Of a stretch of DNA of 32,000 nt, positions 8,423-30,814 are shown in pieces. The position numbers were made by a program, and so were the translations under genes. The notes under the pieces are model-generated. The model was not told the DNA's origin and searched no databases. It was given only the letters and a program-made list of their open reading frames with translations. Within the stretch, counting starts at the first letter, position 1; each line of letters begins with the position of its first letter. The stretch is from Geobacter metallireducens GS-15 (GTDB lineage Bacteria > Desulfobacterota > Desulfuromonadia > Geobacterales > Geobacteraceae), in the NCBI RefSeq assembly GCF_000012925.1, contig NC_007517.1, positions 600,001 to 632,000 on the forward strand, read 5' to 3'.

Positions 8423-8565
8423 AATAACACGGAGAGACGGAGAACACGGAGTACTACAAATTCATTATTGCTAGATTGTTGTCAGACTGACATCTCTTGT
8501 GCAGAATTTGAGCAAATCAAAGCAATGTATTGATTTCTCCGTGCCCTCCGTCTCTCCGTGTTATT
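8423..8565. repeat. palindromic intergenic repeat element, copy 1 (29-bp terminal inverted repeats)
   Basis: The left arm AATAACACGGAGAGACGGAGAACACGGAG (8423-8451) is complementary to the right arm CTCCGTGCCCTCCGTCTCTCCGTGTTATT (8537-8565) at 27 of 29 positions. Each arm is built from three ACGGAG units. A related copy lies at 11761-11902. Confidence 0.85.
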
Positions 8566-8601
8566 CAGCAGTGGTTTGTGAGAGCGAGGAAGGTGAACAA
8601 C

Positions 8602-9904: not shown

Positions 9905-9940
9905 TCCCCGCTCCGCTCCCTGCCGGATCAAGGATGATTC

Positions 9941-10810: not shown

Positions 10811-10847
10811 GGTATTGCCGGCCACTCACCGTCACAGGAAACCATAG

Positions 10848-11753: not shown

Positions 11754-11760
11754 GAAATTT

Positions 11761-11902
11761 AATAACACGGAGAAACTGAGGGCACGGAGAAAAAACCAAG
11801 CCTGACAGATAAGTTGTGAATCGATGCTGCTATGCTCAGTCATGGATTTTCTCTGGGAGATAGGTTTTGATTCCTCCGTGTTCTCCGTCTCTCCGTGTTA
11901 TT
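11761..11902. repeat. palindromic intergenic repeat element, copy 2
   Basis: The left arm is AATAACACGGAGAAACTGAGGGCACGGAG (11761-11789). The right arm is CTCCGTGTTCTCCGTCTCTCCGTGTTATT (11874-11902). The right arm is the exact reverse complement of copy 1's left arm. The interiors share stretches (CTGACA...TTGTG..AAT, TTGATTyCTCCGTG) in the same orientation. Confidence 0.85.
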
Positions 11903-11903
11903 C

Positions 11904-12458
11904 ATGCTTATGGTGACTATGTTCAACGACACCTTCGACAAAATAACCTGGGCGCTTCTGGCGTTCGTGATCGTAGCCCTCGCAGCCCTTCTGGCCATGA
12001 ACCACGGCGCGGGGGATGGCAAGGCCGCGGGCCTCGGCAAGGCGGTGGAGCGGGAGATGGCCTACCGCGCCCGCATCGAGCTGATCGGCAAGCTCTACGG
12101 TCCGGTGGAGGATCTGCGCAAGGCGGGGAAAAACCAGGAGGCGCTCCTGAAGCTGGATGAGCTGATCAGGAGCTATCCCGGCGAGGCCCACGGCTACATC
12201 CTTCAGGGGGAGATCCTCCGGGAGATGGGTGCCCTGGACGAGGCGGTGGCCTCCTTCGAGGCGGGGGTGAAGCTCAACGGCGACTACGTGGACGCCAGGA
12301 GCCCCCTGTCGCGGCGCGGCGCGATTCAGGGGCTCGTGGACGAGGGGCTCAGGAGCATCGGTGGCCGGGCCGCGGCCAATCCCGGCAACCGGAGCCTGGC
12401 GGCCTCGCTCGCCAAGGTCAACTACCTCAAGAGCAGGCTGGCCGGGGGGTGCGAGTGA
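11904..12458 (+). CDS. membrane-anchored TPR-repeat protein
   Basis: ORF 11895..12458. The GTG at 11895 lies in the repeat arm, so an ATG at 11904, 11910 or 11919 is more likely; the start is uncertain. It has one N-terminal TM (ITWALLAFVIVALAALLAM). The TPR-like helices are GKNQEALLKLDELIRSYPGEAHGYILQGEILREMGALDEAVASFEAGVKLNGDY. Confidence 0.7.
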   Translation: MLMVTMFNDTFDKITWALLAFVIVALAALLAMNHGAGDGKAAGLGKAVEREMAYRARIELIGKLYGPVEDLRKAGKNQEALLKLDELIRSYPGEAHGYILQGEILREMGALDEAVASFEAGVKLNGDYVDARSPLSRRGAIQGLVDEGLRSIGGRAAANPGNRSLAASLAKVNYLKSRLAGGCE

Positions 12459-13519
12459 TGCTGCGGGACCGGCATTTCTGGATGGTGGTGGCGGCAGGGC
12501 TTCTCCTCGGGGGGCTCGGGGCGCTCCTGGCGGTCTGGGGGAACCCGGAGAACTCGGGAATCTGCGTCTCCTGCTTCATCGAAAACAGCGCCGGCGCCCT
12601 GGGGATGCACGATAACCCCCGCATGCAGTACCTGCGCCCCGAACTGATCGGCTTCGTCCTCGGCGCCATGGCCAGTGCCCTCCTCTTTCGCGAGTTCCGT
12701 TCCCGGGGCGGGAGCGCCCCACTGCCGCGGCTCTTCGCGGGGATCTTCCTCATGGTGGGGTGCGGTGTCTTCATCGGCTGCCCCATCAAACTGTTCCTCC
12801 GGCTGACCGCCGGGGACCTCACCGCCGTTGCCGGGGTCGCGGGGCTCGTGGCCGGGGTCTGGGCAGGGCTCCGGGGGCTTGCCAACGGGGTTGAACCGGG
12901 CCAGACGAGCCGGGGCCAGGGGCACGGTGGTCCGCTGATACCGGCCTTTTTCATCCTTCTCCTCGTCTTCCTCCTCATCCGTCCCGGTTTCATCCTCTTC
13001 TCCACCCAGGGGAGCGCCGCCCAGCATGCACCCGTACCCCTTGCCCTGGGGGCCGGCGTCGTGCTCGGCGCTTTGGCCCAGCGGAGCCGCTTCTGCATCA
13101 CCGGCAGCATCCGGGACGTCTTCCTCATGGGGAAGCGGACCCCCGCCCTCTGGGGGATGCTCGCCTTTCTGGCCGCGGCGGTCGCCGCCAACCTTGCCAC
13201 GGGAAGGTTCAATCCCGGTCTCCACGGCCAGCCCGGCGCCCATCTGGAGCACCTCTGGAGCTTCCTCGGCATGGGGCTCACGGGGTGGATCTCCGTCCTC
13301 ATCGGCGGCTGCCCGTTCCGCCAGCTCATCAAGGCCGGCGAAGGGGATGCCGATGCCGGTCTCGTGGTGGTGGGGATGTTCATCGGCGGCGCCCTGGTGC
13401 AGTCGTGGGGGATCGCCGCCACGGCGGCCGGGGTCTCCCTGACCGGGAAGGTGGCGATTCTTGCCGGCTTCGCCTCGGTACTTGCTGCCTCCCTCCTCTT
13501 CCGTAGTCGGAGTATCTGA
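12458..13519 (+). CDS. YedE/YeeE-family transporter (putative selenium/thiosulfate uptake)
   Basis: ATG 12458 overlaps the TPR stop (TGATG). The protein is polytopic and carries the family-typical Cys motifs GICVSCF, GCGVFIGCPIK and GGCPFRQLIKAGEGD. Confidence 0.8.
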   Translation: MLRDRHFWMVVAAGLLLGGLGALLAVWGNPENSGICVSCFIENSAGALGMHDNPRMQYLRPELIGFVLGAMASALLFREFRSRGGSAPLPRLFAGIFLMVGCGVFIGCPIKLFLRLTAGDLTAVAGVAGLVAGVWAGLRGLANGVEPGQTSRGQGHGGPLIPAFFILLLVFLLIRPGFILFSTQGSAAQHAPVPLALGAGVVLGALAQRSRFCITGSIRDVFLMGKRTPALWGMLAFLAAAVAANLATGRFNPGLHGQPGAHLEHLWSFLGMGLTGWISVLIGGCPFRQLIKAGEGDADAGLVVVGMFIGGALVQSWGIAATAAGVSLTGKVAILAGFASVLAASLLFRSRSI

Positions 13520-13664
13520 GCGGAAGTCAAAGTCCCGTCAAAAGGCGACAACCGTCGCGCATGTTCCCTTTTTTGACACCCGAACTCAGCGTCTTCTTTT
13601 CCCGTGACGATACGCTAACCGACTCCTGCATTGAGGGAAGGTATTGACGCCCATTCGGGATTTA

Positions 13665-13680
13665 TGGAATAGAAATTGCT
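13665..13680 (+). promoter_or_regulatory. candidate sigma-54 -24/-12 promoter for the 1848-aa cytochrome
   Basis: TGGAAT-AGAAA-TTGCT compared with TGGCAC-N5-TTGCW. GG and GC are separated by 10 nt. It lies about 100 nt upstream of ATG 13780. Confidence 0.45.
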
Positions 13681-13779
13681 AATTTTATAGTTACCAAGAA
13701 ATTCCCGCATGTCGTGGCGACGTTCAGAGGCAGGGAGGCCGAAGGCAGGCAAATTCGTATGGGGTGCTGGAGGCATGAT

Positions 13780-16700
13780 ATGAAGCCGATACTAGTGGCA
13801 ACGGCCGCCATGATTTCCGTGATGCTTCTGACGGTAACCGGTGCCGGTGCCGCCATGCAGTGTTATGACTGCCACGGGACAAGCGCAACCACGGATTACC
13901 GCCCCGTCGACGCCACCTACCGCAATATCTCCACCGGCGGCTTCAAGGGGAATCACCAGACCCACATGGGAAGCGGAGCCTCTTCCGCTGACTGTGCCGT
14001 CTGTCACGGCGGTGGGGCAACATCCTATCTGAACAGTCACCGCAGTGGCAATGTCGATATCGCCGCCAACATCAACAATTCTCCCGCTACCGGAACTTAC
14101 AGCCGCGGCACCTCCTTCGCCCAGAGCACCACGCCGACCCTCGGCACCTGCGCCACCGTCAACTGCCATTTTGAAGCCGCCACCCCCACCTGGGGAGCCG
14201 ACCCCTCCCTGACCACCTGCAGCACGTGCCACGGCGCGGCGCCGGCCGACGGGAGCCATCCCGCCACCTCGGGAAGCGGCAAGAAGCACGGCGACTACTA
14301 CGGCCTCACCACCAGCTCCTGCGTCAAGTGCCATCCCGACCACACCGCTGAAGCCAAGCCCTTCGCCCATGCCACGAGCGCCGGCAACCGCGCCCTTGTC
14401 GTCGCCTTCAATGCGGCACCCAACAGCGGCTTCGGCCGCTACACCGGCAATACCAATTACCCGAACTATCTTCCGAGCCAGGCTCCCCCCCGCAACGGCA
14501 CCTGCAAGAACCTCTACTGCCACAGTAACGGCAGTCGCGGTTTCGCCCCCTACACGAGCAACGTCACCGCAACGTGGGGCGGGTCACTCACCTGCAAGGG
14601 GTGCCACAAGGCGGATATCGCATCGGGAAGCGTCATAACGAACGGCAGCCACCAGGGCCACGTAAACGGCATGACCATCGGCTACACCCAGATCAAGTGC
14701 GTCAAGTGCCATGCCGCCACCACAAACAGCAGCATGACGATCGTCAACACCGCCAACCATGTGGACAAGCAGGTAACGGTTGCTTTTAACAATACTTCCT
14801 CTGCCGCCAATGGCTCCTATAATGGCCAGCTTGCCAAGCCGGCGACCCCGTCCACCAAGGCCCCCGGTTCGGCGGTGGGCCAGTGCGCCACGGTCTACTG
14901 CCATTCGAGCGGCCAGGGGGATGGCGGCACCTGGCCCCCCACCTACCAGACCCCCACCTGGGGAACCTACGCAACGGGCCAGTGCGGCACCTGCCATGGC
15001 ATCCAGACCAAGCACGACGCCTCGGGCTTCGGCTACGGAACGCCGACCCCCATGACCACTGGCAGCCACACGAGGCACCTCCTCTTCCAACTGGGCACCG
15101 GCAACGTCAGCGCCGAGCGCAAGTGCGCCGCCTGCCATTCTTACATCCTCACCGGTTATGCGCCGAATGCATGCAGTTCCACGGTCTGCCACAACGGCAT
15201 GGTCCAGAAGCACGCCAACTACGAAATCAATGTGGGCATCCCCGACTATTACGGCGCCACGGCCACCTACAATGCCGCAAGCCTGACCCCCGGCACCGGC
15301 TACAGTTCCTGCTCCAACGTCTATTGCCACAGCAACGGACTTACGACCTCTCCCACCTATTACACCCCCACCTGGGGGACCGTAGCTGATGGCGCCTGCG
15401 GCACCTGTCACGGCGTCACCGCCGCCGCGCCTCCGGCCTCTGTCCCCCACGTGAAGCACATGGGGATCGCCAACCAGTACCGCTTCGCCTGCGCCGAGTG
15501 CCACAGCGGCAAGGTTCAGGTGACCGCCAACTCAACGGCCGCCCCGACGTTCACCAACCTGACGAGCCACGTGAACAAGTCGCGGGATGTGAAATTCGAT
15601 CCGACCAACCCCTTCGGCACTTACTCCACGGCGAGCCTGAGCTGCCGCAACCTGTACTGCCATTCCACCGGCAACACCAGCGTTGCATCGGGCAATTTGC
15701 CCGGCGTCTACGGCGGCAAGGTCTATGCGCGTGTCACATGGTCCGGAAGCGTCACCTGCACCTCATGTCACGGCCGCTCCACCGCCAACGGCATGCCTGA
15801 CTATACCAACGCCGGCACGCCCGGTTCCGATACGGCCAACAGTCACCCGAAACACGTCACGAGCAGCACCATCCAGTGCGTCGAGTGCCATGAAAAGACC
15901 ACGAAGAACAACACCTCCATCCGGCCGACTACGCCCAGCTACCATGTCAACGCCACGAGCCACGATGTCTTCTTCAACCTGAGCGGTCTGAGTCCGAGCG
16001 GCACCTATGACAGTGCCCTGAAGAAATGCTCCAATACGTATTGCCACGGGGCCGGAGCTTCAGTTGCCTGGGGCGGGACCACCTACTGCAACTCCTGCCA
16101 CAGCGCCAATGACGGCACGTCCGGCGGTGGCGGCATCAACAACTGGGGCGCCGGCGTAAGTGCCCACACCCTGCATGTGGAAGAGACAGCCACGCTTCCG
16201 TCAAAATACGCCAACTACTCCACCGGCAACCTGGGGAGTGCCGCCGCCTACCGTTTTGCCTGCGCCTCGTGCCACAATCCGGCCACAACCATCCACCTGA
16301 GCGGCTACGCCAGCGGCAGCTACCGGGCCCAGGTCTTCTTCGGGTACACCGCGCCGGGCAAGAAGCCAGCGTACACCTACACCGGCACGGCAGGGACGGC
16401 CGACAACGGTTTTGGCTGGTCCAACGGCAACACCGTCTGCAACCAGACGTACTGCCACTCAAACGGCGTAGGCGGCACCGGCGCCGCCGTTTCATGGGCC
16501 ACCACCGCCAACACCGCCGGCGTGGGGAGATGCCAGAAATGCCACGGCAATGCCACCTATACCGCCGATTATCGTGGCGCCGCACCCTTGTACGCTTCAG
16601 GCTCCATCAGCTACAAAGGCTCGTCCAAGGGGAACGCCCACCAGCTCCATATCGATGCCGGGTCGGGCGCCGCTGCGGCGAGCGATCCCCAGTGCCTGCA

Positions 16701-19326
16701 CTGCCATGCCGGCACGACAACCACCAATACGAGCATAACCAACAAGGTCAACCACATAGACAAAGGGTATGACGTGACCGCCGGCAGCACCTTTGCCGAT
16801 GGCGACAACATCGGCGGCGCGGCAATCCCGGTGACGACCAGCTACACCTACAACACATCGGGGAGCAGCTGCTCCAACGTCTCCTGCCACCCGACCGGCC
16901 TCTCCGGCGCCAAGTCCACCGATGTCGTATCCTGGAACGACAAGCAGACCTGCGACGACTGCCACAAGGTCAACCTCAGCAACAACACCGGCTACCACCA
17001 TGCCATGCGCAACTACTCCGGTTCGAGCGCCTCCTATCCCAAGGCAATACCGGGCGACACTGCCGGCTCCAACGACGTGAACCGCCGCTGCACCATGTGC
17101 CACGTGGACCATGGCACCTTCAGCCCGAACCTCAACGCCTCGAACACCACCTACGGCAGTGCCGGCAACCTGCGGATGTCGATCTACTCCTCAGTCACCG
17201 CCACCAAGGGGTACAGCAACAGGGACTTCTTTAAGACCGGCTCCGGCGGCATCTGCGTCAGCTGCCACAACAGCGAGCTCTTCAAGGACACCGGCAACGT
17301 CCGGGTGAAGAACGAGGCCAATTCCACGAAAACAGCCGCCATTGTGCTCAACAACTACACCGGCTCGGCCCACGAGTATGCCATAAGTTCGGTGATGAAA
17401 CGCGACAGCAAGGTCTTCTACTCCGACTGCACCAAGTGCCATAACGGCCGCCGGAACGAGGTCGCCGTCTTCTCCGGCATGACCACCGCAGTGCACGACC
17501 GGGAGGTGAGAAGGATCTACGCCAGCCTCGGCACGAACCAGACAGACGGCATCGATGCGCTCTTCTGCTACCGCTGCCACAGCAACGCAACGGATGCCAT
17601 AGGCGGGACCAAAAAGCCGACAGCAAACAAGGACTATTACGCTACTGCCGCCATGACCGCAGCTTCCCAGGACATCTGGACGGTCTTCAGCGGAGTCGGT
17701 TCCACTACCTACACGACCACGGCATCATCCACCCTGTACCTGCGGGACACGGGGGCAATAAACGCCGTTCCACCGGCAACCGAGCCAACAGCCTACCAAT
17801 ACAGTTCCGGGACCTATACCACCAATACCTTCACCCAGGAGGATATGGCGCCCACATCCGGTACAATCAATGCGACGACGGTCATTTCCACAGGCTCTAC
17901 GGCAGCCCGCTATGATCGGGGCATCCAGTTCATATCGCCACAGATTGACAATACGGTAACGATTGCATCCGGTTCCACCTTTACCCTGACGATCAGGGAA
18001 TACCGTTCGTTCGGCACCACCACGGACTACACCCGGTTTACCGTTTACAAATGGGATGGGGCAACGGCGACGCCGTTGAACACGAACGCAGCGCCGAATA
18101 ACTTTGCCCAGGACACGGTTGCCATTCCTACCACGGCAACCAACAACGCACTTGCATTCACCACCAATTCAGCGGTGACGCTCAATCCGGGGGATGCCCT
18201 GATCTGTGAAGTTGAGTTCTACCATAGCTCGGGAACAACTGCCTTGAACGTGACCTATGCCTACGGTAACTATGGGACGGATGCCGCGGCTCTCGCGCTC
18301 CCCGCCGGCACCTACAACTGGCGAACCACTGCAACCACATCAAGATTTGGGCACGGTGTCGAAAATATCGCCTACGCCGGCAAGCACAAGCCATCGCCCA
18401 CGGACGAGACGTTCACCTACCTGAGCGCCAACAAGCATATTTCCTGCAACGACTGCCACGACCCCCACGAGGCGCGAGCCGGAAATCATACGGCCGGCGG
18501 TACGACGCTGCCCAAGGTGTTGAAGGGGGCGACCGGCGTAACCACACCCACCTGGCCGGCGCTATGGACGGCACCTGCGCAATCGGCCTATGGCACAGCC
18601 CCTGCCGCAGCGACGGCGGAATGGCAGATCTGCTTCAAGTGCCATTCCGGCGCCAACAGTAATGTGACGACCTGGGGCGGGGCGGGGTCGAAAGCATTCA
18701 CCGACCTCGGGCTGGAGTTCAACCCCAATAACGAGTCGTATCACCCGGTGATCCAGGCGCTGCCCGCAACCGGCAACAGACGTCTCGCTTCGACTGCACT
18801 GACGGGCGGCTGGACCCCCGGCAGCGTCATGACCTGTTCCGACTGCCACGCTGCCGATTCCGCTTCTTCCAAGGGGCCGCACGGTTCCACGGTGAAATGG
18901 ATGCTGAATCCGAACACGACCGGCACGAAGTACTACAACTGGCCCTATACTTCTGCTGCCAATAACGGAACAAACGGCACCACCGGTTTTGTGATGGGCA
19001 CCGGAACAACAACCGTGCCCACGGGTAACTTCTGTTTCAGTTGCCACGTGTGGGCGGGCGGCGGTGACGCTCATACTAATAAAGATACCAAGCATGCTTA
19101 TGCGTGCGTCCAGTGCCATATCCGGGTACCCCATGGCGGCAAGGTGCTGCGGCTGCTTACGGGACCGAATGCGCCCCTTCGTTACTGGCCGAACGGCCAG
19201 AGCACTGGTCTGAATATTGCCATCAATGGCGGTGTCAGGCCGACCTCCGGAACCATTACCGAGAACGGCTGCACCACCGCCGGGGTATGCGGCAACCAGC
19301 ATTCAGGGGCCGGTCAGAAATGGTGA
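13780..19326 (+). CDS. giant multihaem c-type cytochrome (~1848 aa)
   Basis: ORF 13714..19326. I prefer ATG 13780 because GGAGG sits 5 nt upstream and the start context is identical to the paralogue at 22606. Signal peptide is MKPILVATAAMISVMLLTVTGAGAA. By eye there are 26 CXXCH and 9 CX4CH motifs (CATVNCH, CKNLYCH, CATVYCH, CSSTVCH, CSNVYCH, CRNLYCH, CSNTYCH, CNQTYCH, CSNVSCH). A haem-free stretch lies at about nt 17640-18340. Confidence 0.9.
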   Translation: MKPILVATAAMISVMLLTVTGAGAAMQCYDCHGTSATTDYRPVDATYRNISTGGFKGNHQTHMGSGASSADCAVCHGGGATSYLNSHRSGNVDIAANINNSPATGTYSRGTSFAQSTTPTLGTCATVNCHFEAATPTWGADPSLTTCSTCHGAAPADGSHPATSGSGKKHGDYYGLTTSSCVKCHPDHTAEAKPFAHATSAGNRALVVAFNAAPNSGFGRYTGNTNYPNYLPSQAPPRNGTCKNLYCHSNGSRGFAPYTSNVTATWGGSLTCKGCHKADIASGSVITNGSHQGHVNGMTIGYTQIKCVKCHAATTNSSMTIVNTANHVDKQVTVAFNNTSSAANGSYNGQLAKPATPSTKAPGSAVGQCATVYCHSSGQGDGGTWPPTYQTPTWGTYATGQCGTCHGIQTKHDASGFGYGTPTPMTTGSHTRHLLFQLGTGNVSAERKCAACHSYILTGYAPNACSSTVCHNGMVQKHANYEINVGIPDYYGATATYNAASLTPGTGYSSCSNVYCHSNGLTTSPTYYTPTWGTVADGACGTCHGVTAAAPPASVPHVKHMGIANQYRFACAECHSGKVQVTANSTAAPTFTNLTSHVNKSRDVKFDPTNPFGTYSTASLSCRNLYCHSTGNTSVASGNLPGVYGGKVYARVTWSGSVTCTSCHGRSTANGMPDYTNAGTPGSDTANSHPKHVTSSTIQCVECHEKTTKNNTSIRPTTPSYHVNATSHDVFFNLSGLSPSGTYDSALKKCSNTYCHGAGASVAWGGTTYCNSCHSANDGTSGGGGINNWGAGVSAHTLHVEETATLPSKYANYSTGNLGSAAAYRFACASCHNPATTIHLSGYASGSYRAQVFFGYTAPGKKPAYTYTGTAGTADNGFGWSNGNTVCNQTYCHSNGVGGTGAAVSWATTANTAGVGRCQKCHGNATYTADYRGAAPLYASGSISYKGSSKGNAHQLHIDAGSGAAAASDPQCLHCHAGTTTTNTSITNKVNHIDKGYDVTAGSTFADGDNIGGAAIPVTTSYTYNTSGSSCSNVSCHPTGLSGAKSTDVVSWNDKQTCDDCHKVNLSNNTGYHHAMRNYSGSSASYPKAIPGDTAGSNDVNRRCTMCHVDHGTFSPNLNASNTTYGSAGNLRMSIYSSVTATKGYSNRDFFKTGSGGICVSCHNSELFKDTGNVRVKNEANSTKTAAIVLNNYTGSAHEYAISSVMKRDSKVFYSDCTKCHNGRRNEVAVFSGMTTAVHDREVRRIYASLGTNQTDGIDALFCYRCHSNATDAIGGTKKPTANKDYYATAAMTAASQDIWTVFSGVGSTTYTTTASSTLYLRDTGAINAVPPATEPTAYQYSSGTYTTNTFTQEDMAPTSGTINATTVISTGSTAARYDRGIQFISPQIDNTVTIASGSTFTLTIREYRSFGTTTDYTRFTVYKWDGATATPLNTNAAPNNFAQDTVAIPTTATNNALAFTTNSAVTLNPGDALICEVEFYHSSGTTALNVTYAYGNYGTDAAALALPAGTYNWRTTATTSRFGHGVENIAYAGKHKPSPTDETFTYLSANKHISCNDCHDPHEARAGNHTAGGTTLPKVLKGATGVTTPTWPALWTAPAQSAYGTAPAAATAEWQICFKCHSGANSNVTTWGGAGSKAFTDLGLEFNPNNESYHPVIQALPATGNRRLASTALTGGWTPGSVMTCSDCHAADSASSKGPHGSTVKWMLNPNTTGTKYYNWPYTSAANNGTNGTTGFVMGTGTTTVPTGNFCFSCHVWAGGGDAHTNKDTKHAYACVQCHIRVPHGGKVLRLLTGPNAPLRYWPNGQSTGLNIAINGGVRPTSGTITENGCTTAGVCGNQHSGAGQKW

Positions 19327-19356
19327 TAGTCTAGGTTTGCGACGTACCTCAAGGCG

Positions 19357-20679
19357 ATGAAACGGTTTCTGCTCTCACGTACTACCATCCTCGCTCTCTT
19401 TGCGCTGATCCTTGGCGCGATAGTGCTGTCCTATTTTGTTCCGCAACACATGGGAGTGCCTTCCCGCGCTCTCGATAAGTGGCGGGAGTCCCATGGGCCG
19501 CTGCTTGCGGCGGTCGATTTCCTGGGACTGCACCATATGTTCACGACCCCGTGGTTTGCCACCCTACTTGCGTTTTTTCTGGCTTCCCTTTCCCTGTCAA
19601 CGTATCAGCAGTACCGTTTGGCAAAAGAGCGGACTTTTCGGGTAGGGCTTCCTGGCGAAGGCTGGATCTCCCTGCCGGAAACAGCGATGGAATCGGCGGT
19701 GATTCTGCGGAAATTCGGATATGTGCGGATTGGCAACCAGGGAGAAGTGTCCCGGCATGTCAAACACCCCTGGGGGTATTGGGGCAACTTTCTGCTGCAC
19801 GTCGGCATTGTGCTCGTGGTGGCCTCGTCGCTGGTTATCCTGGTAACCCAGCATCGTGGGCTTCTCAATCTTGAGAGGGGCGAAACCGTTTATCCCGGTA
19901 CGCCATGGGCCGTTGAGGAAAATGGTCTGTTTGTCGGAAAGTTTGTGCTTCCGGCAGCCGTCCGGCTTGAGTCCCACGATCCGGTATTCTGGGATAACGG
20001 CGAGATCAAGTTGATTGAATCTACCGTTGCGTTCCTGTATCCGGACCGGCCCGTGGAACGCGCTACACTCGGAATCAATCAGCCTGCCTGGCTCGGCGGC
20101 GTCAAGATCTACCAGAGTCACAGGTTCGGCAGCGACTTCTATGCTGAGTTTGCCGATAGAGACGGCAAGAAAGTTGTGCTCATACTTCCCCTGCAAATCC
20201 CACCGCGGCTCGACGAGGCAGGCTATGGAGATTTTCAGTTCAACGTGATGCCCTTTCAGATCAAGGCAAAATATTATGCCGATGCTGCCCGGAAGGATAT
20301 GCTGAGCGGCAATCCGCTGCTCGTCCTCCGGTTGTACGATGGTGCCGCGCTCTTGGGAGAACTTCCGCTCCGGATTGGCGAAAGCGGCGTTCTCGGGAAC
20401 TACCATGTCCGGTTACTCAAAGCCGTGCCATGGAACGGGTTGATACTTGTCTCGATGAGCGGTATGCCAGGCATATTTTTCGGTTTTTTCATTATTGTAT
20501 GTGGCTGTTCCCTCAATTACTTCGTCGTGCCGCGGGAGGTGTGGGTGAGGGAGGGATCACAAACAGCGGTTTCCTGGCGGGCTGCACGCTTTGCCGAATT
20601 CTACCGTGACGAATATGACGAGCTTGTGGCGGCCTTGGGCGCTATGCACGAGCAAGCCGAAGCCGGGCCGGTTCAGTGA
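19357..20679 (+). CDS. resB: ResB/CcsB (Ccs1) cytochrome c biogenesis protein, System II
   Basis: 440 aa. It has the ResB-type N-terminal helix (TILALFALILGAIVLSYFVPQ), further TMs, a large periplasmic loop and a C-terminal TM. ccsA follows immediately. Confidence 0.85.
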   Translation: MKRFLLSRTTILALFALILGAIVLSYFVPQHMGVPSRALDKWRESHGPLLAAVDFLGLHHMFTTPWFATLLAFFLASLSLSTYQQYRLAKERTFRVGLPGEGWISLPETAMESAVILRKFGYVRIGNQGEVSRHVKHPWGYWGNFLLHVGIVLVVASSLVILVTQHRGLLNLERGETVYPGTPWAVEENGLFVGKFVLPAAVRLESHDPVFWDNGEIKLIESTVAFLYPDRPVERATLGINQPAWLGGVKIYQSHRFGSDFYAEFADRDGKKVVLILPLQIPPRLDEAGYGDFQFNVMPFQIKAKYYADAARKDMLSGNPLLVLRLYDGAALLGELPLRIGESGVLGNYHVRLLKAVPWNGLILVSMSGMPGIFFGFFIIVCGCSLNYFVVPREVWVREGSQTAVSWRAARFAEFYRDEYDELVAALGAMHEQAEAGPVQ

Positions 20680-20727
20680 ATTGGATTACGTCTTCACAAG
20701 AGGGCTTGAACGAAGGGAACGGTTGCC

Positions 20728-21564
20728 ATGTTCAATGGGAATGATCCGGTTATCATAGATGTTTCAGTCCACTGGATTGCGGTTATTGTGTACGTGCTGG
20801 CCACAATCAGCAATGTTTGGGGTGTGGTGTTCACGAAGAAAAAGGCTGTGCAATGGAGCTACTTCCTGGCATACCTGGGTCTCGCTATCCACGGGCTTGT
20901 CCTGCTTTACCGGTGGGTGATAACCGGCCATGGCCCGTATATGGCCCGGTACGAAATCCTTTCTTCAAATGCGTGGGTGCTCCTGGTGCTGTTTCTTGTG
21001 TTCGGCAAGGTTTATCCAAAGATCAAGCCGGCAAGCATCGTCGTTTTCCCGGCAACATTTCTTCTCATTGCCCTGGGCCTTTTCTTCAACCCCGAGATGA
21101 CCAGGATGCCCCCCAGCATGCGGAGCATCTGGCTTGTTCTGCATGTCTTATTTTACAAGATTTCAGTGGCAACCATTCTTGTCGCACTGGCATTTTCCCT
21201 GGTCCTGATCCTGAAAACCAGAACCTCGTACACATGGCTGGAACGGCTTCCATCCATCGAAGTCGTTGACGTCTACGCCTACCGTTTTGCCGGATTCAGC
21301 TTTGTGTTCTGGGCCATTGCCATGCTTGCCGGTTCCATATGGGCCTATCAGCTATGGGGGAGATTCTGGGGGTGGGATCCCGTGGAAACCTGGTCACTCA
21401 TCACGTGGGGGGCATTTGGCATGTATCTTCACCTGCGCAGGTTTTTCGGCTGGAAAGGGGAGCGGGCAGCCTACTTTTACCTGCTCTGCACGTTCGTATC
21501 GATTGTGGCGCTCTATTTTACGCCCTTGCTGGAGACATCCATCCATTCGGAGTATTTCAGGTGA
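20728..21564 (+). CDS. ccsA: CcsA/ResC cytochrome c-type biogenesis protein (haem handling, WWD domain)
   Basis: Polytopic membrane protein with the Trp-rich WWD signature WGRFWGWDPVETWSLITW and flanking conserved His residues. Confidence 0.9.
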   Translation: MFNGNDPVIIDVSVHWIAVIVYVLATISNVWGVVFTKKKAVQWSYFLAYLGLAIHGLVLLYRWVITGHGPYMARYEILSSNAWVLLVLFLVFGKVYPKIKPASIVVFPATFLLIALGLFFNPEMTRMPPSMRSIWLVLHVLFYKISVATILVALAFSLVLILKTRTSYTWLERLPSIEVVDVYAYRFAGFSFVFWAIAMLAGSIWAYQLWGRFWGWDPVETWSLITWGAFGMYLHLRRFFGWKGERAAYFYLLCTFVSIVALYFTPLLETSIHSEYFR

Positions 21565-22076
21565 TACGGAAAATTCTCGTATTCGCGCTATTGTGTCTCT
21601 TGTCTGCCGGTTGTGGCCGTGACAGTGCCGATGTGGCGCAGATCAAGAGGGGTATTGCCCGTTACAACCAGCTTCTTGTCGAAGGATACAAGGGGTTGAA
21701 CATGAACTACCTTCAGGAGGTCGCAACCCCTGAACTGGCTACCAAGGCCTATTATCACATGTCTGCCATTGGTGAGGGGAAACTTCGGATGGAATCAGCC
21801 CTGAAAGAGCTCACATTCAACAGGATTGAATTGCGCCGAAAGGATGAGGCCATTGTGGAAACCCGCGAAGTGTGGGACTTCAGATATGTGGAGATGAAAA
21901 CCGGCAAAACGTATTACGAGGAAAAGGATTTTGTCTACGAGATGGGGTATACCCTGAAGAAACACGCAGAAAAATGGACCATAACCCACATAACAACCAT
22001 TTCAGGGAAAACCGGTACAACGACCGTGCCCTGGCCGGAAATCAAGAGAAACAAAGACATGACTCCCCTGAAGTGA
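21561..22076 (+). CDS. small lipoprotein of unknown function (~171 aa)
   Basis: ORF 21339..22076 overlaps ccsA for 74 codons. The in-frame GTG 21561 (GTGA overlap with the ccsA stop) gives VIRKILVFALLCLLSAGC, a textbook lipoprotein signal. The remainder is a soluble alpha+beta-looking domain with no motif I recognise. Confidence 0.65.
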   Translation: MIRKILVFALLCLLSAGCGRDSADVAQIKRGIARYNQLLVEGYKGLNMNYLQEVATPELATKAYYHMSAIGEGKLRMESALKELTFNRIELRRKDEAIVETREVWDFRYVEMKTGKTYYEEKDFVYEMGYTLKKHAEKWTITHITTISGKTGTTTVPWPEIKRNKDMTPLK

Positions 22077-22205
22077 GTGAGCCGCTCCCTGAGCTGAACA
22101 CCTAGTTCGGTAGTTTCATGCCGTATCCCCTTCGTTCTCCCCAGCTTCCCCAGCAGTTTCAGCTGTTAATTCCCTTCATGCTCTGACGGTACCCTGGACA
22201 AGAGG

Positions 22206-22222
22206 GCCGGGGTCTCCCCGGC
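22206..22222 (+). terminator. GC-rich hairpin in the long spacer (possible terminator)
   Basis: GCCGGGG-TCT-CCCCGGC, a 7-bp stem about 130 nt after stop 22076. There is no clear U-tract. Confidence 0.3.
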
Positions 22223-22476
22223 GCATGTCCCTGTTTCATGGATTCAAACAGTAATCGGCAGTCGGGCTCGGTCAAATGACGTAGTTTTTGTTCCCTTGTC
22301 CGTTATTTTGACATGATTGAGCGGGTTCTGTGTCGAAAGGCCGACGCGCTGCCGGTTCCCTTACGGCAGGCTTGGGCGGACAAGTTTCCCGCGAATGTGC
22401 GATCCGGGGGAGGAAGAGCGTCGATATGATTCTACGGCGATTCGGTGTGGTTAATGTGTTCTGTTAAAGTTTATTA

Positions 22477-22492
22477 GGGAGCAGTTTTTGCA
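22477..22492 (+). promoter_or_regulatory. candidate sigma-54 -24/-12 promoter for the 1127-aa cytochrome
   Basis: GGGAGC-AGTTT-TTGCA. GG (22478-22479) and GC (22490-22491) are 10 nt apart. It lies about 115 nt upstream of ATG 22606. Confidence 0.4.
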
Positions 22493-22605
22493 TTCATTAA
22501 AAACCGGTCGATGCATCATCTCGTGCCGCTTGCTGAGAGGAATCGCCATCTCGTGGCAGGAAAGACGAAGCAACGACATGCATCTGGAGTCGGTGGAGGC
22601 ATGAT

Positions 22606-25600
22606 ATGAAGTCGATGATAGCGGCAACAGCCGCTGTGCTTTCTGTGGTGTTTCTGGCGGTAACGGGTGCCAGTGCCTCCATTCAGTGCTATGACTGCCA
22701 TGGCACAACTGCAACTGCGGACATCCGCCCCAACGATACCGCATACCGCAATATCACTACCGGTGCCTTCAAGGGGAGCCACCAGACCCACATGGCACCG
22801 GGCGCGACGGTCACAAGCTGCACCCCCTGCCACGGGGGGAGGGTCACGAGCTACACCACGAGCCACCGCGAGGGCTTCATCAACCTCACGAGCAACGTCA
22901 ACGGTTCACCGGCCACAGGGGTTTACAGCCGCGGCACCCTCTTTGCGCAGAGCTCGGATCCAACCCTCGGGACCTGCTCCAATGTCAACTGCCACTTCGA
23001 GACGGTTACCCCCACTTGGGCCTTAACCCCGCTCTCAGCCCCGGCCGACTGCAACAAATGCCACGGCGCAGCCCCTGCCGACGGGAGCCATCCCGCCACA
23101 TCGGGCAGTGGCAAGAAGCATGGCGACTACTACGGCCTCACCACCAGTTCCTGCGCCAGGTGCCACCCCGACCATACCCTTGAGGCGCGGCCCTTCGACC
23201 ATGCCACCAGCGCCGGCAACCGCGGACTCATCGTGCAATTCACGACGGCGCCCAACAACGGTTTCGGCCGTTATACCGGCAACGTGAGGTACCCCAACTA
23301 TCTGCCGAGCCAGAACCCGTCCCGCAACGGCACCTGCAGAAACCTTTACTGCCACAGCCCCGGCAACAAGGCGAGCAGCTTCGATCTTCCCAACAACAGC
23401 GCCACCTGGGGCGGTTCTCTCAGCTGCAAGGGGTGCCACAAAGCGGATATCGCTTCAGGCGATGCCATTACGAGCGGCAGCCACCAGGGCCACGTCAACG
23501 GCCAAGGCATCGGCTATACCCAGATCAAGTGCGTCAAGTGCCATGGGGCCACCGTCAACTCCAGCATGACGATCGTCAATACCGGCAACCATGTGAACGG
23601 ACAGGTAACGATCGCCTTCGACAACACCTCTTCTGCCGCCGGCGGCACCTATAACGGCCAGCCTGCCAAGCCGGCAACCCCGTCCACCAAGGCCCCCGGC
23701 TCCACCTACGGCAGCTGCCAGAACGTCTACTGCCACTCCACCGGCCAGACCGATGGCGGCACCTGGCCTCCCCTCTACACCACTCCCACCTGGGGGAGCG
23801 GCGCCACCGGCAAATGCGGCACCTGCCACGGCACCACCGGCAGCGACACCCACGGCGGCTTTCCCGGCACCATGATCCAGCGGAGGATCTCCTCCGGCAG
23901 TCACAAGAAGCACCTGAGCCGGGTCTACGGCCTGACCGATCTGGACATGAGGTGCGCCATCTGCCACGCCTACGACAAGACCGCCTTCACCAGCAACCTC
24001 ACCACCTGCGGCCCGGTCTGCCATGTCGCCAGCATGCCGCAGAAGCACGCCAACTACGAGATCAACGTCAACATCGCCAACTACTTCGGCGCCACCGCCA
24101 CCTACAACGGCTCCACCACGCCGGGGGCGGGCTACAGCAGCTGCTCCAGCGTCTACTGCCACTCCGACGGCAAGGCAACCCCCACGACCTATGCCACCCC
24201 CACCTGGGGCAACGCCGCCAGCGGCGCCTGCGGCACCTGCCACGGCGTCACCGCCGCTGCGCCGCCGGCCTCAACCCCCCACACGAAACACGTGGGGAGC
24301 GCCTATCCCTACCGCTTTGCCTGCGCCGAATGCCACAGCGGCAAAGTTCAGGTGACCGCCAACGCCACCATCGCCCCGGCCTTCGCCAACTCAACCAGCC
24401 ACGTGAACAAGACGCGGGACGTGAAGTTCGACCCCACCAACCCCTTCGGGACCTACTCCTCGGCCGCCACCACGTGCCGCAACCTCTACTGCCATTCCAC
24501 CGGCAACACCAGTGTTGCTGCGGCCAACCTCCCCGGAGTCTACGGCGGGAGCGTCTACGCGCGGCAGGGGTGGACAGGAAGCGTCACCTGCACCTCGTGC
24601 CACGGCCGCTCCACCACCAACGGCATGCCCGACTACACCAACGCCGGCGCGCCGGGATCGGCCACGGCCAACAGCCATCCGAAGCATGTCACGAGCAGCA
24701 CCATCGCCTGTAACGAGTGCCACGAGAAGACCACCAAGAACAACACGAGCATCCGCCCGACTACGCCGAGCTACCACGTTGCGGGCACTCCCAGCGTCTT
24801 CTTCAACCTCTCCGGCGCCAACAAGAACGGGACGTACAACGGCACCGTGGGGCAGAAGACCTGCACCAACATCTACTGTCACAGCAACGGGTCCGGGACC
24901 TACCAGTCTCCCGCCCCGCAGTGGGGTAACAGTTACAACTGCGGCTCCTGCCATCCCATCGCCAGTCTCAGTGCCACCCACGCCAAGCATATCGATGTAA
25001 CGGTGACGCCGACCTTCTACACCTTTACGGCCAACCGCTCATCGGGCGACGATACGACCGGCAAGTACTACTTCGGCTGCTCCAACTGCCATCCCCTGGA
25101 CGCCGTCAATCACGCCAACGGCAGCATCACCCTGGATTTGCGTCCTGCCGTCGGCGGTGTGAGCACGCTCCGTTCGAAAAACAGTGCCGCCATAACCGCT
25201 TTCGGCACCGCCGGAACAGCCAACAGCGGCACGATCGGCACCAGCAAATCCTCGGTCAAGTGCCTGAATATCTACTGCCACAGTAACGGCTATGCAGCGA
25301 ACCCTGTCTACGCCACAACACCGGACTGGTACGGCGGGAGCTTTACCGACCGGTGCGCCAGCTGCCACGGCAACTCCCCCAACAGCACCATCAACGGCTC
25401 GCCGGCCCACTACAACACCAATTTTGTCGGCACGGGGGTCAGCAACGGCCATGTGGTGGGGATCCATTCCGACGACATCTTTACCGGAACAAGCGGTCTC
25501 GCCACCGCCGGAACCGGCGCCACCAACAGCCACGGCAACAGCGCATACTCGACCACCATCAACTGCAACGTCTGCCACAACCTGACGGTCACCAGCGCCC

Positions 25601-25989
25601 GGAACGATTCGAACGTAGTCTGCAAGACCTGCCACTACAGCGGCAATACCGTCGGCGCCCTTGTCGGCAACAGCGCCGCCATCGCCAACAAGGCTCTCCA
25701 TGTGAGCGGGCAGGTGAATGTCTCCTTCGCGGCAGTCGCCGTAAAATCGAAGGCCGAGGTGAGGACCGCCAGCGCGGTCGTGCAGCCCTACAAGACCACC
25801 TGGAACCGGGTCGGAACCTACAAGAGCTCCGGCTCGTACGATCAGGCCGCCAATGCGCTCAACACGGCCTCCATGTGGAACGGGGCCACCAAGACCTGTT
25901 CGAACATCGCCTGTCACAACGGGCAGCCTGTCACCTGGACTTCCACCGGTGGCGCCACCGGTTGCCAGAGTTGCCACCCGGCTTTGTAG
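22606..25989 (+). CDS. multihaem c-type cytochrome (1127 aa), paralogue of the N-terminal two-fifths of the 13780 gene
   Basis: GGAGGCATGATATGAAG start context is identical to that at 13780. Signal peptide is MKSMIAATAAVLSVVFLAVTGASAS. By eye there are 18 CXXCH, 8 CX4CH and one CX3CH (CGPVCH). The first ~760 aa align residue for residue with the 13780 protein, and most positions are identical. Confidence 0.9.
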   Translation: MKSMIAATAAVLSVVFLAVTGASASIQCYDCHGTTATADIRPNDTAYRNITTGAFKGSHQTHMAPGATVTSCTPCHGGRVTSYTTSHREGFINLTSNVNGSPATGVYSRGTLFAQSSDPTLGTCSNVNCHFETVTPTWALTPLSAPADCNKCHGAAPADGSHPATSGSGKKHGDYYGLTTSSCARCHPDHTLEARPFDHATSAGNRGLIVQFTTAPNNGFGRYTGNVRYPNYLPSQNPSRNGTCRNLYCHSPGNKASSFDLPNNSATWGGSLSCKGCHKADIASGDAITSGSHQGHVNGQGIGYTQIKCVKCHGATVNSSMTIVNTGNHVNGQVTIAFDNTSSAAGGTYNGQPAKPATPSTKAPGSTYGSCQNVYCHSTGQTDGGTWPPLYTTPTWGSGATGKCGTCHGTTGSDTHGGFPGTMIQRRISSGSHKKHLSRVYGLTDLDMRCAICHAYDKTAFTSNLTTCGPVCHVASMPQKHANYEINVNIANYFGATATYNGSTTPGAGYSSCSSVYCHSDGKATPTTYATPTWGNAASGACGTCHGVTAAAPPASTPHTKHVGSAYPYRFACAECHSGKVQVTANATIAPAFANSTSHVNKTRDVKFDPTNPFGTYSSAATTCRNLYCHSTGNTSVAAANLPGVYGGSVYARQGWTGSVTCTSCHGRSTTNGMPDYTNAGAPGSATANSHPKHVTSSTIACNECHEKTTKNNTSIRPTTPSYHVAGTPSVFFNLSGANKNGTYNGTVGQKTCTNIYCHSNGSGTYQSPAPQWGNSYNCGSCHPIASLSATHAKHIDVTVTPTFYTFTANRSSGDDTTGKYYFGCSNCHPLDAVNHANGSITLDLRPAVGGVSTLRSKNSAAITAFGTAGTANSGTIGTSKSSVKCLNIYCHSNGYAANPVYATTPDWYGGSFTDRCASCHGNSPNSTINGSPAHYNTNFVGTGVSNGHVVGIHSDDIFTGTSGLATAGTGATNSHGNSAYSTTINCNVCHNLTVTSARNDSNVVCKTCHYSGNTVGALVGNSAAIANKALHVSGQVNVSFAAVAVKSKAEVRTASAVVQPYKTTWNRVGTYKSSGSYDQAANALNTASMWNGATKTCSNIACHNGQPVTWTSTGGATGCQSCHPAL

Positions 25990-26017
25990 TTGACGCATAA
26001 AACGAATGAATGATAAT
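25990..26017 (+). promoter_or_regulatory. candidate sigma-70-type promoter in the AT-rich spacer
   Basis: TTGACG (25990-25995), a 16-nt spacer, then GATAAT (26012-26017). It lies about 40 nt upstream of ATG 26056, which has an AAGGAG RBS at 26043-26048. Confidence 0.35.
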
Positions 26018-26055
26018 TATTTTCGACTGTTGAAGCAGATACAAGGAGTCGACAG

Positions 26056-29000
26056 ATGCATGCACTCAAGCCAAGGGGCAGTACCCGCAATGGGTGGTGG
26101 GGAAAAGTAATTCTCGTTGTCGCACTCCTGTTGGGCGCGGGTTTTGTTCTGTTCCATCATGGGGGGAGGCTGTCTCTTGCCGCTACATCGGGTCCGAATG
26201 CTGTTGCGACCGGAACGACATCCGGCTGGACGGGTGCGACGAACATTTACACACAGAACAGCACCTATGCGACCTACGCCGGATCCTCCAGCACGGCATA
26301 CCTGCTTGGTACCAATTACGGTTTTGCCATCCCGACCGGATCGACGATCAATGGCATTACTGTCGATATCTGGGGGTTCAACAGCAACACGACTACCGCT
26401 AACCGCATGATCAAGATTTCGCTCACCAAGACCGGCAACTCCACGGTGGCGGGTACCACGAAGACAGGCGTCACGCTTCCGACCGCCAACGGCCAGGTGA
26501 CCCAGGGGGGCGCCGCCGACCTCTGGGGAACCACTTGGACGGCCGCTGATGTCAACAGTGCGAACTTTGGCGTCATCATCGCAGACAATGATACGACTAT
26601 CGGCGGCACGCTCAGTATTGACTACGTGCGGGTCACCGTCACCTACACCCCGCCGACGACGCTCGGCAACGGTGCCACCGGCACGAACGCCACCGTCTGC
26701 CCCGGTGATGCCTTGCAGAAACTCGACGGTTTCTCTTTCACGACCGCCACCGGGACCGACAGTATTACCGCCCTCACCGTCACGACCACCAACGGCACTG
26801 CCATCGCCGGCATGTCGATCTGGGACGAGGCGGGGACTACCCAGTATTTCACCACCGTGAACAACCCGGGAACCAACACCTGGAGTTTCAGCGGCGGTAC
26901 GCCGATCCCCGTTGACACGACCGTCAAGAACTACAAGGTTCTGGTAACGTACAAGGATCACCCCACCGCTCCGGCGGGTTCAACCGCCACCACGGCCGCC
27001 GTCACCGCCTTCACCCCTTCGACCGGGGTGGCGGCCGGCACGGATACGGCGGACACGACACTCACCCTCGACAATGTCCCCGGCACTGCAGCCGTGTGGG
27101 GGACAAACACCGGCGGCGTCGCATCGGTGACCCTCAACTGGACCCTCGGCGCTGCAGGAGAGAACGTGGTAATAGTCCGGTATGGGGCGAACACCGACAC
27201 CACCATGCCCGTTGATGGCACTTCCTATACCGTGGGCTCTTCGTTCGGGACCGGCGGGACGGTAGCCTACGCCGGATCGGGTGTTACCGCCACCGACACT
27301 GTCCAGGCCGGGACGTATTACTACCGCATCTTCGAATACGATGGCTGCTTCAACTATGCGGCCACCGCCCCATGGTCCACCGCCGTCACGGCCACACCGC
27401 AGAACAAGACGGTCGCCGGCTCCGCCTCCGCCATGTGGGCATCCCCCACCAGCATTTCGGTCATGGTCGGCTATACGAATGACGACAACAGCAACAACAA
27501 CATCACCATCGAGTACAGCAGCGTTTCCGCGTCCACCGGTTTCGTCACGGCGGTGACCACGCCGACCCACCCGGCCGTCCCCTACCAGTACACCATAGCC
27601 GGCCTAACCACCGGCAGCACCTATTGGGTCAGGGTCACCTGGAACGACGTGGATGGTGTGCTCGGCACGAGCCCCACGGTGCTTCCCTCCATCGTCCTCA
27701 CCCAGTACAGTCCGCTCCTGCACAACAGTGCCATCCTCGGATCGAACAAATGGCCGAGCGGCTGGGGGGTGACCGGCGGCAAGTACGGCGCCTTTTCCTG
27801 CACCACCTGCCACACCATGAAGTCGGCCAACATCAAGCGGGTCCGAACCTCCATAACCGCTCCCTTCGGCAACTGGAGTTCCTCCGGTACCCCGAGCGTC
27901 TCCGTCAGCTTCACGAACCTCACGAGCATGGGGCATGACGACGACAATCACACCACTTCCAACCGGGTATGCGAGGTCTGCCACAACAGGAACAAGTACC
28001 ACAACTACAACACCACCAAGAACACCGGCGGAAAGAGCCACAACAACGGCATTGACTGCGTCGGCTGCCATTCTCATAATATTGCCTTCAAAGGGGAGGA
28101 ATCCAAGGGGGGCAAAGCCTGCACCAACTGCCACAACAGCGGCAAGTTCGCCTCTGCCCTCAAGGGATCGAACGGGTACCACCACTATCTGCAGAACACC
28201 GACAGCATCACGTACGGCACCATCGCGCAGCCCGCCCTGACGGGAGGGGCCACCGACACCAACCGCAGCTGTCTCATGTGCCACGTGGACCACGACATCT
28301 TCCGCCCCGACATCAACCTGAACGCCGGCAGCGGTCGGGCCAAGAACCTCCGCGCCGACATATCGACGACCCCGACCGCCGCCGATACGACCAGTTACGC
28401 CAACACCGACTTCATTCCCGATGCCACGAAGAACGGCGGTATCTGCATCTCCTGCCACCGGACTGCGCAGACGAACCTCGGCTACACCCAGCCGGACGGC
28501 TCCCAGAGAAAGCCGGCGATCCCCTATCCTGATACCGTTCAGAATCAGATCTTCGTCTACATGAGCTCGGCCCACAACTACACGGTAAGCTCCACCTTCT
28601 CCGGAACCGGCACCAACTCATTTGTCGCCAACTGCTCGAAGTGCCACAACGACACTCTGAACCCGAAATCCGGCTACAATGCCCAGGGGACCTCACGGAT
28701 CAAGTTCGGCAACCATACCAGCTCTATCCCCCAGATGCTGACCACCTTCGGCGCCCCGGTCACCTCGTCCCAGAAGGCCGATTACTGCTTCAAGTGCCAC
28801 GGCAACGTGGCCCCCTTCAGCACGACGACCCCGAACATCAACGTGTATCTGTCAACGCCGCGGTACGATTGGTACAGCACTTCGCTCATGACCGCCCGGA
28901 CCAAGAACATCGCCGCCGACTTCAACGACGCGGCCCTGACCCACAAACACCAGGTCCAGCTTGCCGCCTATGTTGACAAACACCATGCCGGCGAGACCAG

Positions 29001-29910: not shown

Positions 29911-29944
29911 TGCATCCGATGCCATATCGAAGAGGTAGGACTTG

Positions 29945-30733: not shown

Positions 30734-30759
30734 GCACATTGGCATATCGGCAGGACCGC

Positions 30760-30789
30760 AACCCGGTGAGGGTAACCTCTCCGGGTTTT
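30760..30789 (+). terminator. intrinsic terminator-like hairpin with T-tract
   Basis: AACCCGG-t-GAGG / GTAA loop / CCTC-t-CCGGGTT gives 11 bp with one T:T mismatch. It runs into TTTT (30786-30789) and starts 27 nt after stop 30731-30733. Confidence 0.55.
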
Positions 30790-30814
30790 CCCGTCGAAAG
30801 GAAACCCTGGTTCA

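Follow-up and report, generated by a model that had tools for sequence, protein, structure and literature searches.

Island-type ResB/CcsA pairs as candidate auxiliary cytochrome c synthases beside the giant multihaem cytochromes of Geobacter metallireducens GS-15

A stretch of 32,000 nucleotides of the Geobacter metallireducens GS-15 genome (NC_007517.1, positions 600,001 to 632,000; hereafter the window) belongs to the Gmet_0571-0601 cytochrome island and carries two of the three island-type System II modules in the genome, namely Gmet_0572/0573, accompanied by the lipoprotein Gmet_0574, and Gmet_0578, whose partner Gmet_0579 lies beyond the window edge. Judged from their sequences and setting, these ResB/CcsA pairs would act as auxiliary synthases that are expressed with, and serve, the neighbouring giant PF09698-type cytochromes of 27–35 haems each, a reading in which we place slightly better than even confidence. 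Extracellular electron transfer in Geobacter uses multihaem cytochromes by the dozen, among them proteins that carry over 30 haems, and the present analysis concerns the haem loading of such proteins. The gene layout and the general idea of dedication were already published in 2009 for these very genes. In section 12 and Table S5 of PMC2700814, Aklujkar et al. 2009 describe four ResB-related genes in both Geobacter species, predict that each shares a transcript with a ResC/HemX-like gene and with several multihaem cytochrome genes running in the same direction, propose that every pair serves the cytochromes of its own neighbourhood, and list four pairs together with a HemX-like gene. To this idea the present analysis adds the CX4CH link, the island clade and a candidate third subunit, and it removes the short ResB-like gene at 5166–6110 from the set; these additions are modest and make the hypothesis easier to test. 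Coordinates are window positions (1–32,000) unless marked as genome positions, which refer to NC_007517.1. Gmet names are those of Table S5 of PMC2700814, with which the gene order of the window agrees.

Analysis with Pfam profiles (cut-offs of 24.6 bits for PF05140, ResB, and 29.9 bits for PF01578) reveals a complete System II pair directly behind the 1848-residue cytochrome Gmet_0571 (13780–19326, plus strand), as the first-pass annotation of the window had claimed. Gmet_0572 (19357–20679, plus strand, 440 amino acids) is an island-type ResB/CcsB-like subunit scoring 87.1 bits on PF05140, and Gmet_0573 (20728–21564, plus strand, 278 amino acids) is an island-type CcsA/ResC-like subunit scoring 114.6 bits on PF01578, with the WWD motif WGRFWGWDPVETWSL. 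The stop codon of Gmet_0571 is separated from Gmet_0572 by 30 nt and Gmet_0572 from Gmet_0573 by 48 nt, and no intergenic terminator was found between the three genes; across positions 13000–32000, terminator-like sites number 22 against a shuffled expectation of 16.4 (standard deviation 4.4), which is not clearly above background, and a promoter scan behaves likewise. Gene spacing suggests that the ResB/CcsA pairs are co-transcribed with the neighbouring cytochromes. The same annotation placed further ResB-like genes at 5166–6110 and 30815, and both score above the PF05140 cut-off, with 36.4 and 78.5 bits, respectively. Its remark that neither has an adjacent CcsA gene holds for the former and fails for the latter, Gmet_0578, an island-type ResB-like subunit on the plus strand that runs from 30815 through the window end at 32000 to window-equivalent position 32149 (the profile score covers 30815–31999). 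Its CcsA partner Gmet_0579 (genome 632149–632958; 161 bits on TIGR03144) begins on the last base of the Gmet_0578 stop codon, a 1-nt overlap, so that the absent partner is an artefact of the window edge.

The residues that handle haem in System II are retained throughout. Across the six ResB-like proteins that the genome encodes, the transmembrane (TM) histidine TM-His1 does not vary (H148 in Gmet_0572, His80 in the short protein), and the WWD motif together with three histidines is invariant across all six CcsA-like proteins, corresponding to H139, H235 and H273 in Gmet_0573. When Gmet_0573 is aligned with CcsBA proteins of known structure (25vk and 7s9y), the match covers the WWD motif and the histidines; no PDB sequence match was found for Gmet_0572, the ResB part being too diverged. 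In hydropathy profiles the ResB-like proteins have a His-bearing TM segment, a periplasmic stretch of roughly 190–210 residues and a last TM segment, and Gmet_0572 displays peaks for an N-terminal, the His-bearing and a C-terminal TM segment, with TM2 below threshold. Gmet_0572 shares 42% identity with the ResB protein of the Gmet_0592 pair and 17% with the housekeeping ResB, and it has lost the DPG motif which the latter carries ahead of its last TM segment. Because every residue known to handle haem is kept, the island pairs are most likely working synthases. In the mechanism that would follow, the two subunits, ResB-like and CcsA-like, would together make up a membrane channel through which reduced haem b could pass outward via the TM histidines; the haem would then be held at the periplasmic WWD site between two periplasmic histidines, and its vinyl groups would finally be joined to both cysteines of a motif in the unfolded apocytochrome.

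Conservation of this kind also bears on the possibility that the pairs are hitch-hiking or decaying duplicates, which travel with the island and no longer aid maturation. Long tree branches, a patchy distribution across genomes and the loss of the DPG motif in Gmet_0572 would fit such decay, but we regard it as very improbable: the reading frames are intact, the WWD motif with its three histidines and the TM histidine are invariant across the six CcsA-like and six ResB-like proteins, the CcsA protein Gmet_0594 is 96% identical to its sister-species counterpart, and start/stop overlaps are kept even in distant metagenome contigs.

A profile search of the genome returns six ResB-like and six CcsA-like genes, so the pair at 19357/20728 is not the only System II pair of GS-15. 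The housekeeping pair is Gmet_2901/2900 (genome 3282926–3285175), which lies next to ppcA, with Pfam scores of 293 and 186 bits for the two models; a preprint citing transposon-sequencing data calls GSU0613-0614, the orthologous pair of G. sulfurreducens, essential. The island pairs comprise the two of the window and a third at genome 659264–662030 (Gmet_0592..0594). The other copies are a short pair (genome 169144–170854), the window's short ResB-like gene, which has no CcsA, and a lone HemX-type CcsA beside hemA. On the NCBIfam CcsB equivalog TIGR03144 (cut-off 187.6 bits), the CcsA-like proteins score 307.9 (housekeeping), 292.4 (HemX-type), 161.2 (Gmet_0579), 141.6 (Gmet_0594), 141.1 (Gmet_0573) and 123.7 bits (short-type); the island and short-type proteins thus fall below this cut-off, and all are above the broader Pfam one.

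In a tree of 51 CcsA proteins from eleven genomes, the sequences fall into a short, a HemX-type, a housekeeping and an island clade. Branches within the housekeeping clade are very short, and each of the eleven genomes contributes one copy to it, except those coded G026 and G057, which contribute two. The island clade (17 rows) is supported at 100% by the Shimodaira–Hasegawa-like approximate likelihood ratio test, has long branches, with between two and four members per genome, and contains all three island copies of GS-15. The phylogeny that the first-pass annotation had called for places the window pairs in the island clade and the housekeeping function at genome 3282926–3285175, and the candidacy of 19357/20728 as the housekeeping pair is rejected by Pfam scores, TIGR03144 scores and tree position alike. 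Within the island clade, the closest paralogue of Gmet_0573 is the CcsA of the Gmet_0592/0594 pair (61% identical), and identity between island and housekeeping CcsA is 26–32%. The island copies are a single divergent clade in which, to judge from the alignments, the WWD motif and every haem-ligand histidine are retained, a point that is apparently new.

This divergence has consequences for the idea that the paralogues merely supply extra capacity, adding haem-export and ligation throughput whenever cytochromes of about 30 haems are induced, with any synthase able to serve any site. The conservation of all catalytic residues, the shared transcription direction of pairs and cytochromes (PMC2700814) and the two or three housekeeping-type copies that relatives in genus g12 carry instead would all suit such an arrangement. 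It nevertheless seems quite unlikely, since an old, monophyletic and strongly diverged island clade (26–32% identity, below the equivalog cut-off) fits specialisation better than dosage, and cytochrome-rich genomes free of PF09698 manage with one pair.

The short pair is the fifth of the genome and a miniature System II-like one; at its locus (genome 169144–172267), a CcsA-like protein of 239 residues and a ResB-like protein of 236 residues, both with the key histidines, are encoded divergently to an adjoining eight-haem NapC/NirT-like membrane cytochrome. Its CcsA forms a very deep clade of its own, with one copy in 10 of the 11 tree genomes, including those without giant cytochromes.

The cytochromes adjoining the window pairs are exceptionally dense in haem motifs. 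Gmet_0571 (open reading frame (ORF) 13714–19326; 1848 residues if the start is at 13780) contains 26 CXXCH and 9 CX4CH motifs and matches PF09698 in six stretches, together with PF14522 and PF14537; Gmet_0575 (22606–25989, plus strand, 1127 residues; a multihaem cytochrome c by motif count and in Table S5 of PMC2700814) contains 18 CXXCH, 1 CX3CH and 8 CX4CH motifs. The motif counts of the first-pass annotation, eight to nine CX4CH sites each plus CX3CH, are accurate for these two proteins. Gmet_0576 (26056–29910, plus strand, 1284 residues), two genes upstream of Gmet_0578, is different in that it has 13 CXXCH and no CX4CH motifs, with an N-terminal half that is haem-free by motif count. In Gmet_0571 the motifs recur as units of CX4CH...CXXCH...CXXCH, and the Pfam family for the repeat unit is PF09698, "Geobacter CxxxxCH...CXXCH motif". 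Free cysteines number 0–4 per cytochrome, nearly all cysteines lying within haem motifs. The regular motif rhythm and the placing of almost every cysteine in a motif are the reasons why haem at the CX4CH sites fits. Later literature counts 34 and 27 haems for Gmet_0571 and Gmet_0575 and reports a phenotype of Gmet_0571 deletion in direct interspecies electron transfer with Methanosarcina (PMC10989804). The PDB holds no solved structure related by sequence to the PF09698 repeat region, for which reason we infer, rather than observe, haem occupancy of CX4CH here.

The association of the island pairs with cytochromes of this kind was compared across genomes. The comparison covers 81 genomes of the order, 56 of them cytochrome-rich, and uses the motif family PF09699 as control. 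Across six genomes, a PF09698 match lies within 15 kb of 14 of 17 island-type CcsA genes, as against none of 18 from the other three clades. ResB match counts rise with PF09698 match counts over the 81 genomes (Spearman coefficient 0.75); among the 56 cytochrome-rich genomes the coefficient is 0.69 with PF09698 versus 0.12 with PF09699. None of the 16 genomes with a single ResB has two or more PF09698 matches, and three cytochrome-rich, PF09698-free genomes of genus g4 carry only housekeeping, HemX-type and short CcsA, with no island-type copy. The island clade tracks PF09698 in position, and ResB copy number tracks it across genomes, with counter-examples, and this association also appears to be new.

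Several observations weigh against the view that the pairs serve their PF09698 neighbours. The correlations are overstated, related genomes not being independent, and the genes of one island come and go as a unit, for which no functional link is required. In G011 the island-type pairs lie more than 400 kb from every PF09698 cytochrome, each of which is in turn more than 40 kb from any CcsA, and G026 encodes a 1937-residue PF09698 cytochrome with only housekeeping-type CcsA. In GS-15 itself, a sixth CX4CH-rich cytochrome (genome 2805938–2810542) is located about 2 Mb from the island and far from any synthase gene. The missing DPG motif of Gmet_0572 belongs on the same side of the balance.

These data also bear on a stricter proposal, namely that the island pairs are motif-specific lyases that load CX4CH (and CX3CH) sites beyond the reach of the housekeeping synthase. 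In its favour, five of the six ORFs with at least three CX4CH motifs in the genome lie in the 598–645 kb island around the window's pairs, the positional and phyletic association holds for PF09698 and not for the control PF09699, and a precedent exists in the isoenzymes of Wolinella succinogenes, where CcsA2 handles CXXCH, NrfI handles CXXCK and CcsA1 the CX15CH of MccA (PMC12285233). Non-canonical motifs are indeed present in the neighbouring cytochromes of Gmet_0572/0573 and Gmet_0578/0579, but they are absent beside the two G011 pairs and beside Gmet_0592/0594, the pair with the closest paralogous CcsA, whose neighbours are cytochromes with 23, 7, 19 and 7 CXXCH and no CX4CH. Moreover, Gmet_0576 shows that a CX4CH-free cytochrome can stand close upstream of an island pair, PF09698 cytochromes occur in G026 without island-type CcsA, no solved structure stands behind CX4CH haem occupancy in the PF09698 family, and the title of Kern et al. 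2010 (a reference in PMC12285233) says that unconventional motifs alone are insufficient for NrfI or CcsA1. Strict CX4CH specificity is accordingly a live but minority reading, which we consider unlikely and rank below that of auxiliary synthases. The first-pass proposal of dedicated haem lyases survives in part: extra paralogues exist, their residues are kept, and they co-localise with CX4CH cytochromes, whereas its CX4CH-specific form has counter-examples in Gmet_0592/0594, G026 and G011. What is said here on the function of the auxiliary synthases draws on homology, gene context and distribution, and from these we infer their activity, their action on neighbouring cytochromes and the feature they might recognise, whether CX4CH spacing, repeat fold or polypeptide length.

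One genome of the same order, G003 (91% complete), has at least five large cytochromes, which together account for 16 PF09698 matches, and the CcsA proteins found there are of the HemX and short types only. No strong ResB match was found in this 91% complete genome; either its housekeeping pair is unassembled or a different maturation system is used.

Relatives of the island pairs extend beyond the order. Contigs scanned with the three island CcsA proteins as an aligned query gave a list dominated by distant housekeeping-type CcsA from Actinobacteria and Firmicutes, with about ten informative loci. Among the matches listed, island-type pairs 36–64% identical to Gmet_0573 adjoin giant multihaem cytochromes in distant phyla and an archaeon, at loci in a Nitrospiraceae metagenome-assembled genome (MAG; L014), Acidobacteriota (L016), Lentisphaeraceae (L017), Candidatus Methanoperedens (L019) and L022. 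The Methanoperedens contig has a 33-haem ORF beside the pair, and L022 has a 2534-residue ORF with 49 CXXCH and 8 CX4CH motifs. The CcsA of the Nitrospiraceae MAG is 64% identical to Gmet_0573, and metagenome contigs repeat the order PF09698 cytochrome, ResB, CcsA, lipoprotein. The occurrence of such pairs beside giant cytochromes in distant phyla suggests that synthase and cytochrome have been transferred together. Some of the related pairs among the matches listed, in Acidobacteriota, Lentisphaerota and Bacillota MAGs (L016, L017 and L021), stand beside giant cytochromes without CX4CH, which again speaks against motif specificity.

The lipoprotein Gmet_0574 (21561–22076, plus strand, 171 amino acids) is a candidate third component of the module, apparently translationally coupled to ccsA, and as such seems to be a new element. 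Its GTG start overlaps the stop codon of Gmet_0573 in the sequence GTGA, and its signal region carries the lipobox LSAGC. No Pfam or NCBIfam family was found for it, and its relatives have no Pfam domain and are called "hypothetical protein" where named. The family, which includes GSU0703, shares invariant YxHM and TxExWDF motifs, the invariant His-Met pair being His66/Met67 in Gmet_0574; in the third pair, the paralogue Gmet_0593 (genome 660621–661136) stands between the two synthase genes. The AlphaFold2 model of Gmet_0574 (predicted local distance difference test score, 86.4) adopts an NTF2-like fold. Foldseek matches it to ARC6/PARC6, Tim44, VirB8 and SnoaL-type folds, the best of these being peptide-binding or translocon-associated NTF2 modules (ARC6/PARC6, Tim44, VirB8), and our guess would be that the lipoprotein holds apocytochrome or haem. 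In metagenome contigs and in the Nitrospiraceae MAG the lipoprotein gene follows cytochrome, ResB and CcsA with 4-nt overlaps. Among the 81 genomes it is present in 28, all PF09698-positive; because it is missing from many other PF09698-rich genomes, it would be an optional accessory.

Taken furthest, the island clade, joined in some lineages by a coupled NTF2-fold lipoprotein with an invariant His-Met pair, might constitute a distinct System II synthase for the CX4CH...CXXCH repeats of PF09698 cytochromes, a third motif- or fold-specific lyase after NrfI and CcsA1 that would have spread with its substrates by gene transfer into Nitrospirota, Acidobacteriota and Methanoperedens; we offer this tentatively and hold it to be rather improbable as a whole. 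If the island synthases are needed for giant CX4CH cytochromes, they would be required parts for expression of these proteins in other hosts and would extend the short list of substrate-specific haem lyases.

Comparison with characterised systems places the auxiliary synthases within System II with distinctive features. They share PF05140, PF01578 and the WWD motif with Bacillus subtilis ResBC and with the CcsBA proteins 7S9Y (H. hepaticus) and 25VK (B. thetaiotaomicron), along with P-His1, P-His2 and TM-His2 in CcsA and TM-His1 in ResB; unlike canonical members, the island CcsA proteins reach 141–161 bits on TIGR03144 (cut-off 187.6), against 308 for the housekeeping protein. As in Wolinella succinogenes, several System II synthases occur per genome, the special ones lie beside a proven or, in GS-15, presumed substrate cytochrome, and the WWD motif and histidines are kept. 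The Wolinella enzymes, however, are fused CcsBA proteins with genetically proven substrates, whereas the GS-15 subunits are separate and their substrates putative; in addition, the GS-15 proteins belong to a different clade, found within Desulfuromonadia and relatives, and some of their pairs are accompanied by the NTF2-like lipoprotein. The 2009 description (PMC2700814) draws no link between pairs and CX4CH sites, does not list the short ResB-like gene at 5166–6110 or the short pair at genome 169144–170854, and treats Gmet_0574 and Gmet_0593 as conserved hypotheticals without fold or role. Its Table S5 also labels Gmet_0577 a conserved hypothetical and Gmet_0573 a ResC/HemX-like gene. A literature search returned no experiment on any island-type pair, such pairs appearing only in annotation and proteome lists, and, among the papers searched, nothing usable on System II specificity for CX3CH or CX4CH spacing. 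The GSU2891 protein is reported in G. sulfurreducens proteomes (PMC8691401).

The remaining ResB-like gene of the window, at 5166–6110 on the plus strand, encodes a short membrane protein of 314 residues with four TM segments, and its PF05140 match is partial, limited to profile positions 154–220 of 486. By its gene context it is a CcsA-less member of a conserved GeoRSP radical-SAM block and stands outside the account of dedicated lyases, which is apparently a further new point. Single-copy, full-length orthologues at 41–81% identity are present in 32 of the 81 genomes, the family has the four TM segments and an AGIQxVxDPG motif (the ResB-type "DPG" before the last TM segment), and His80 is invariant in 13 orthologues; full-length conservation and this invariant histidine lead us to reject a truncated pseudogene. 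No CcsA partner is adjacent, the next gene encoding an ArsP_1/SO_0444-type permease, and none occurs in the block of 12 relatives. The order NosD-like beta-helix, CarboxypepD_reg, OpuAC-like and ResB-like is kept in 12 of 12 loci (ten genera); the permease and a cupin then follow in seven of the 12, and PqqD, radical-SAM and SPASM genes stand in the same block in 11. The cytochrome upstream of 5166–6110 is not a conserved neighbour in these 12 loci, so the first-pass statement that each ResB-like gene follows a cytochrome/beta-helix group fails in its cytochrome part for this gene.

Genes at window positions 8602–10810 pass the GeoRSP equivalogs TIGR04302, TIGR04303 and TIGR04304. GeoRSP is defined by the PqqD/radical-SAM/SPASM trio only, and the linked NosD-like, CarboxypepD_reg, OpuAC-like and ResB-like genes lie outside the named system. 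The block as a whole (1221–13519) is conserved with minor rearrangements across ten genera, in the order small ORF, NosD-like, CarboxypepD_reg, OpuAC-like, short ResB-like, permease, cupin, PqqD, radical SAM, SPASM, PhnD-like, TPR and Sulf_transp. The next-best NCBIfam matches of the GeoRSP radical-SAM enzyme, after its own family, are NirJ2 and the haem b synthase AhbD, at about 172 bits; this likeness to haem-modifying enzymes is notable beside a ResB-like protein but may reflect no more than general SPASM similarity. Beta-helix proteins are encoded upstream of both other ResB-like genes of the window. An 832-residue NosD-like protein (1354–3852) lies three genes upstream of the short ResB-like gene, and Gmet_0577 (29942–30733, plus strand, 263 amino acids) precedes Gmet_0578; the latter beta-helix protein is a small secreted parallel form, recognised by the signal peptide and repeats in its translation and by a weak match to the NosD-family model TIGR04247.

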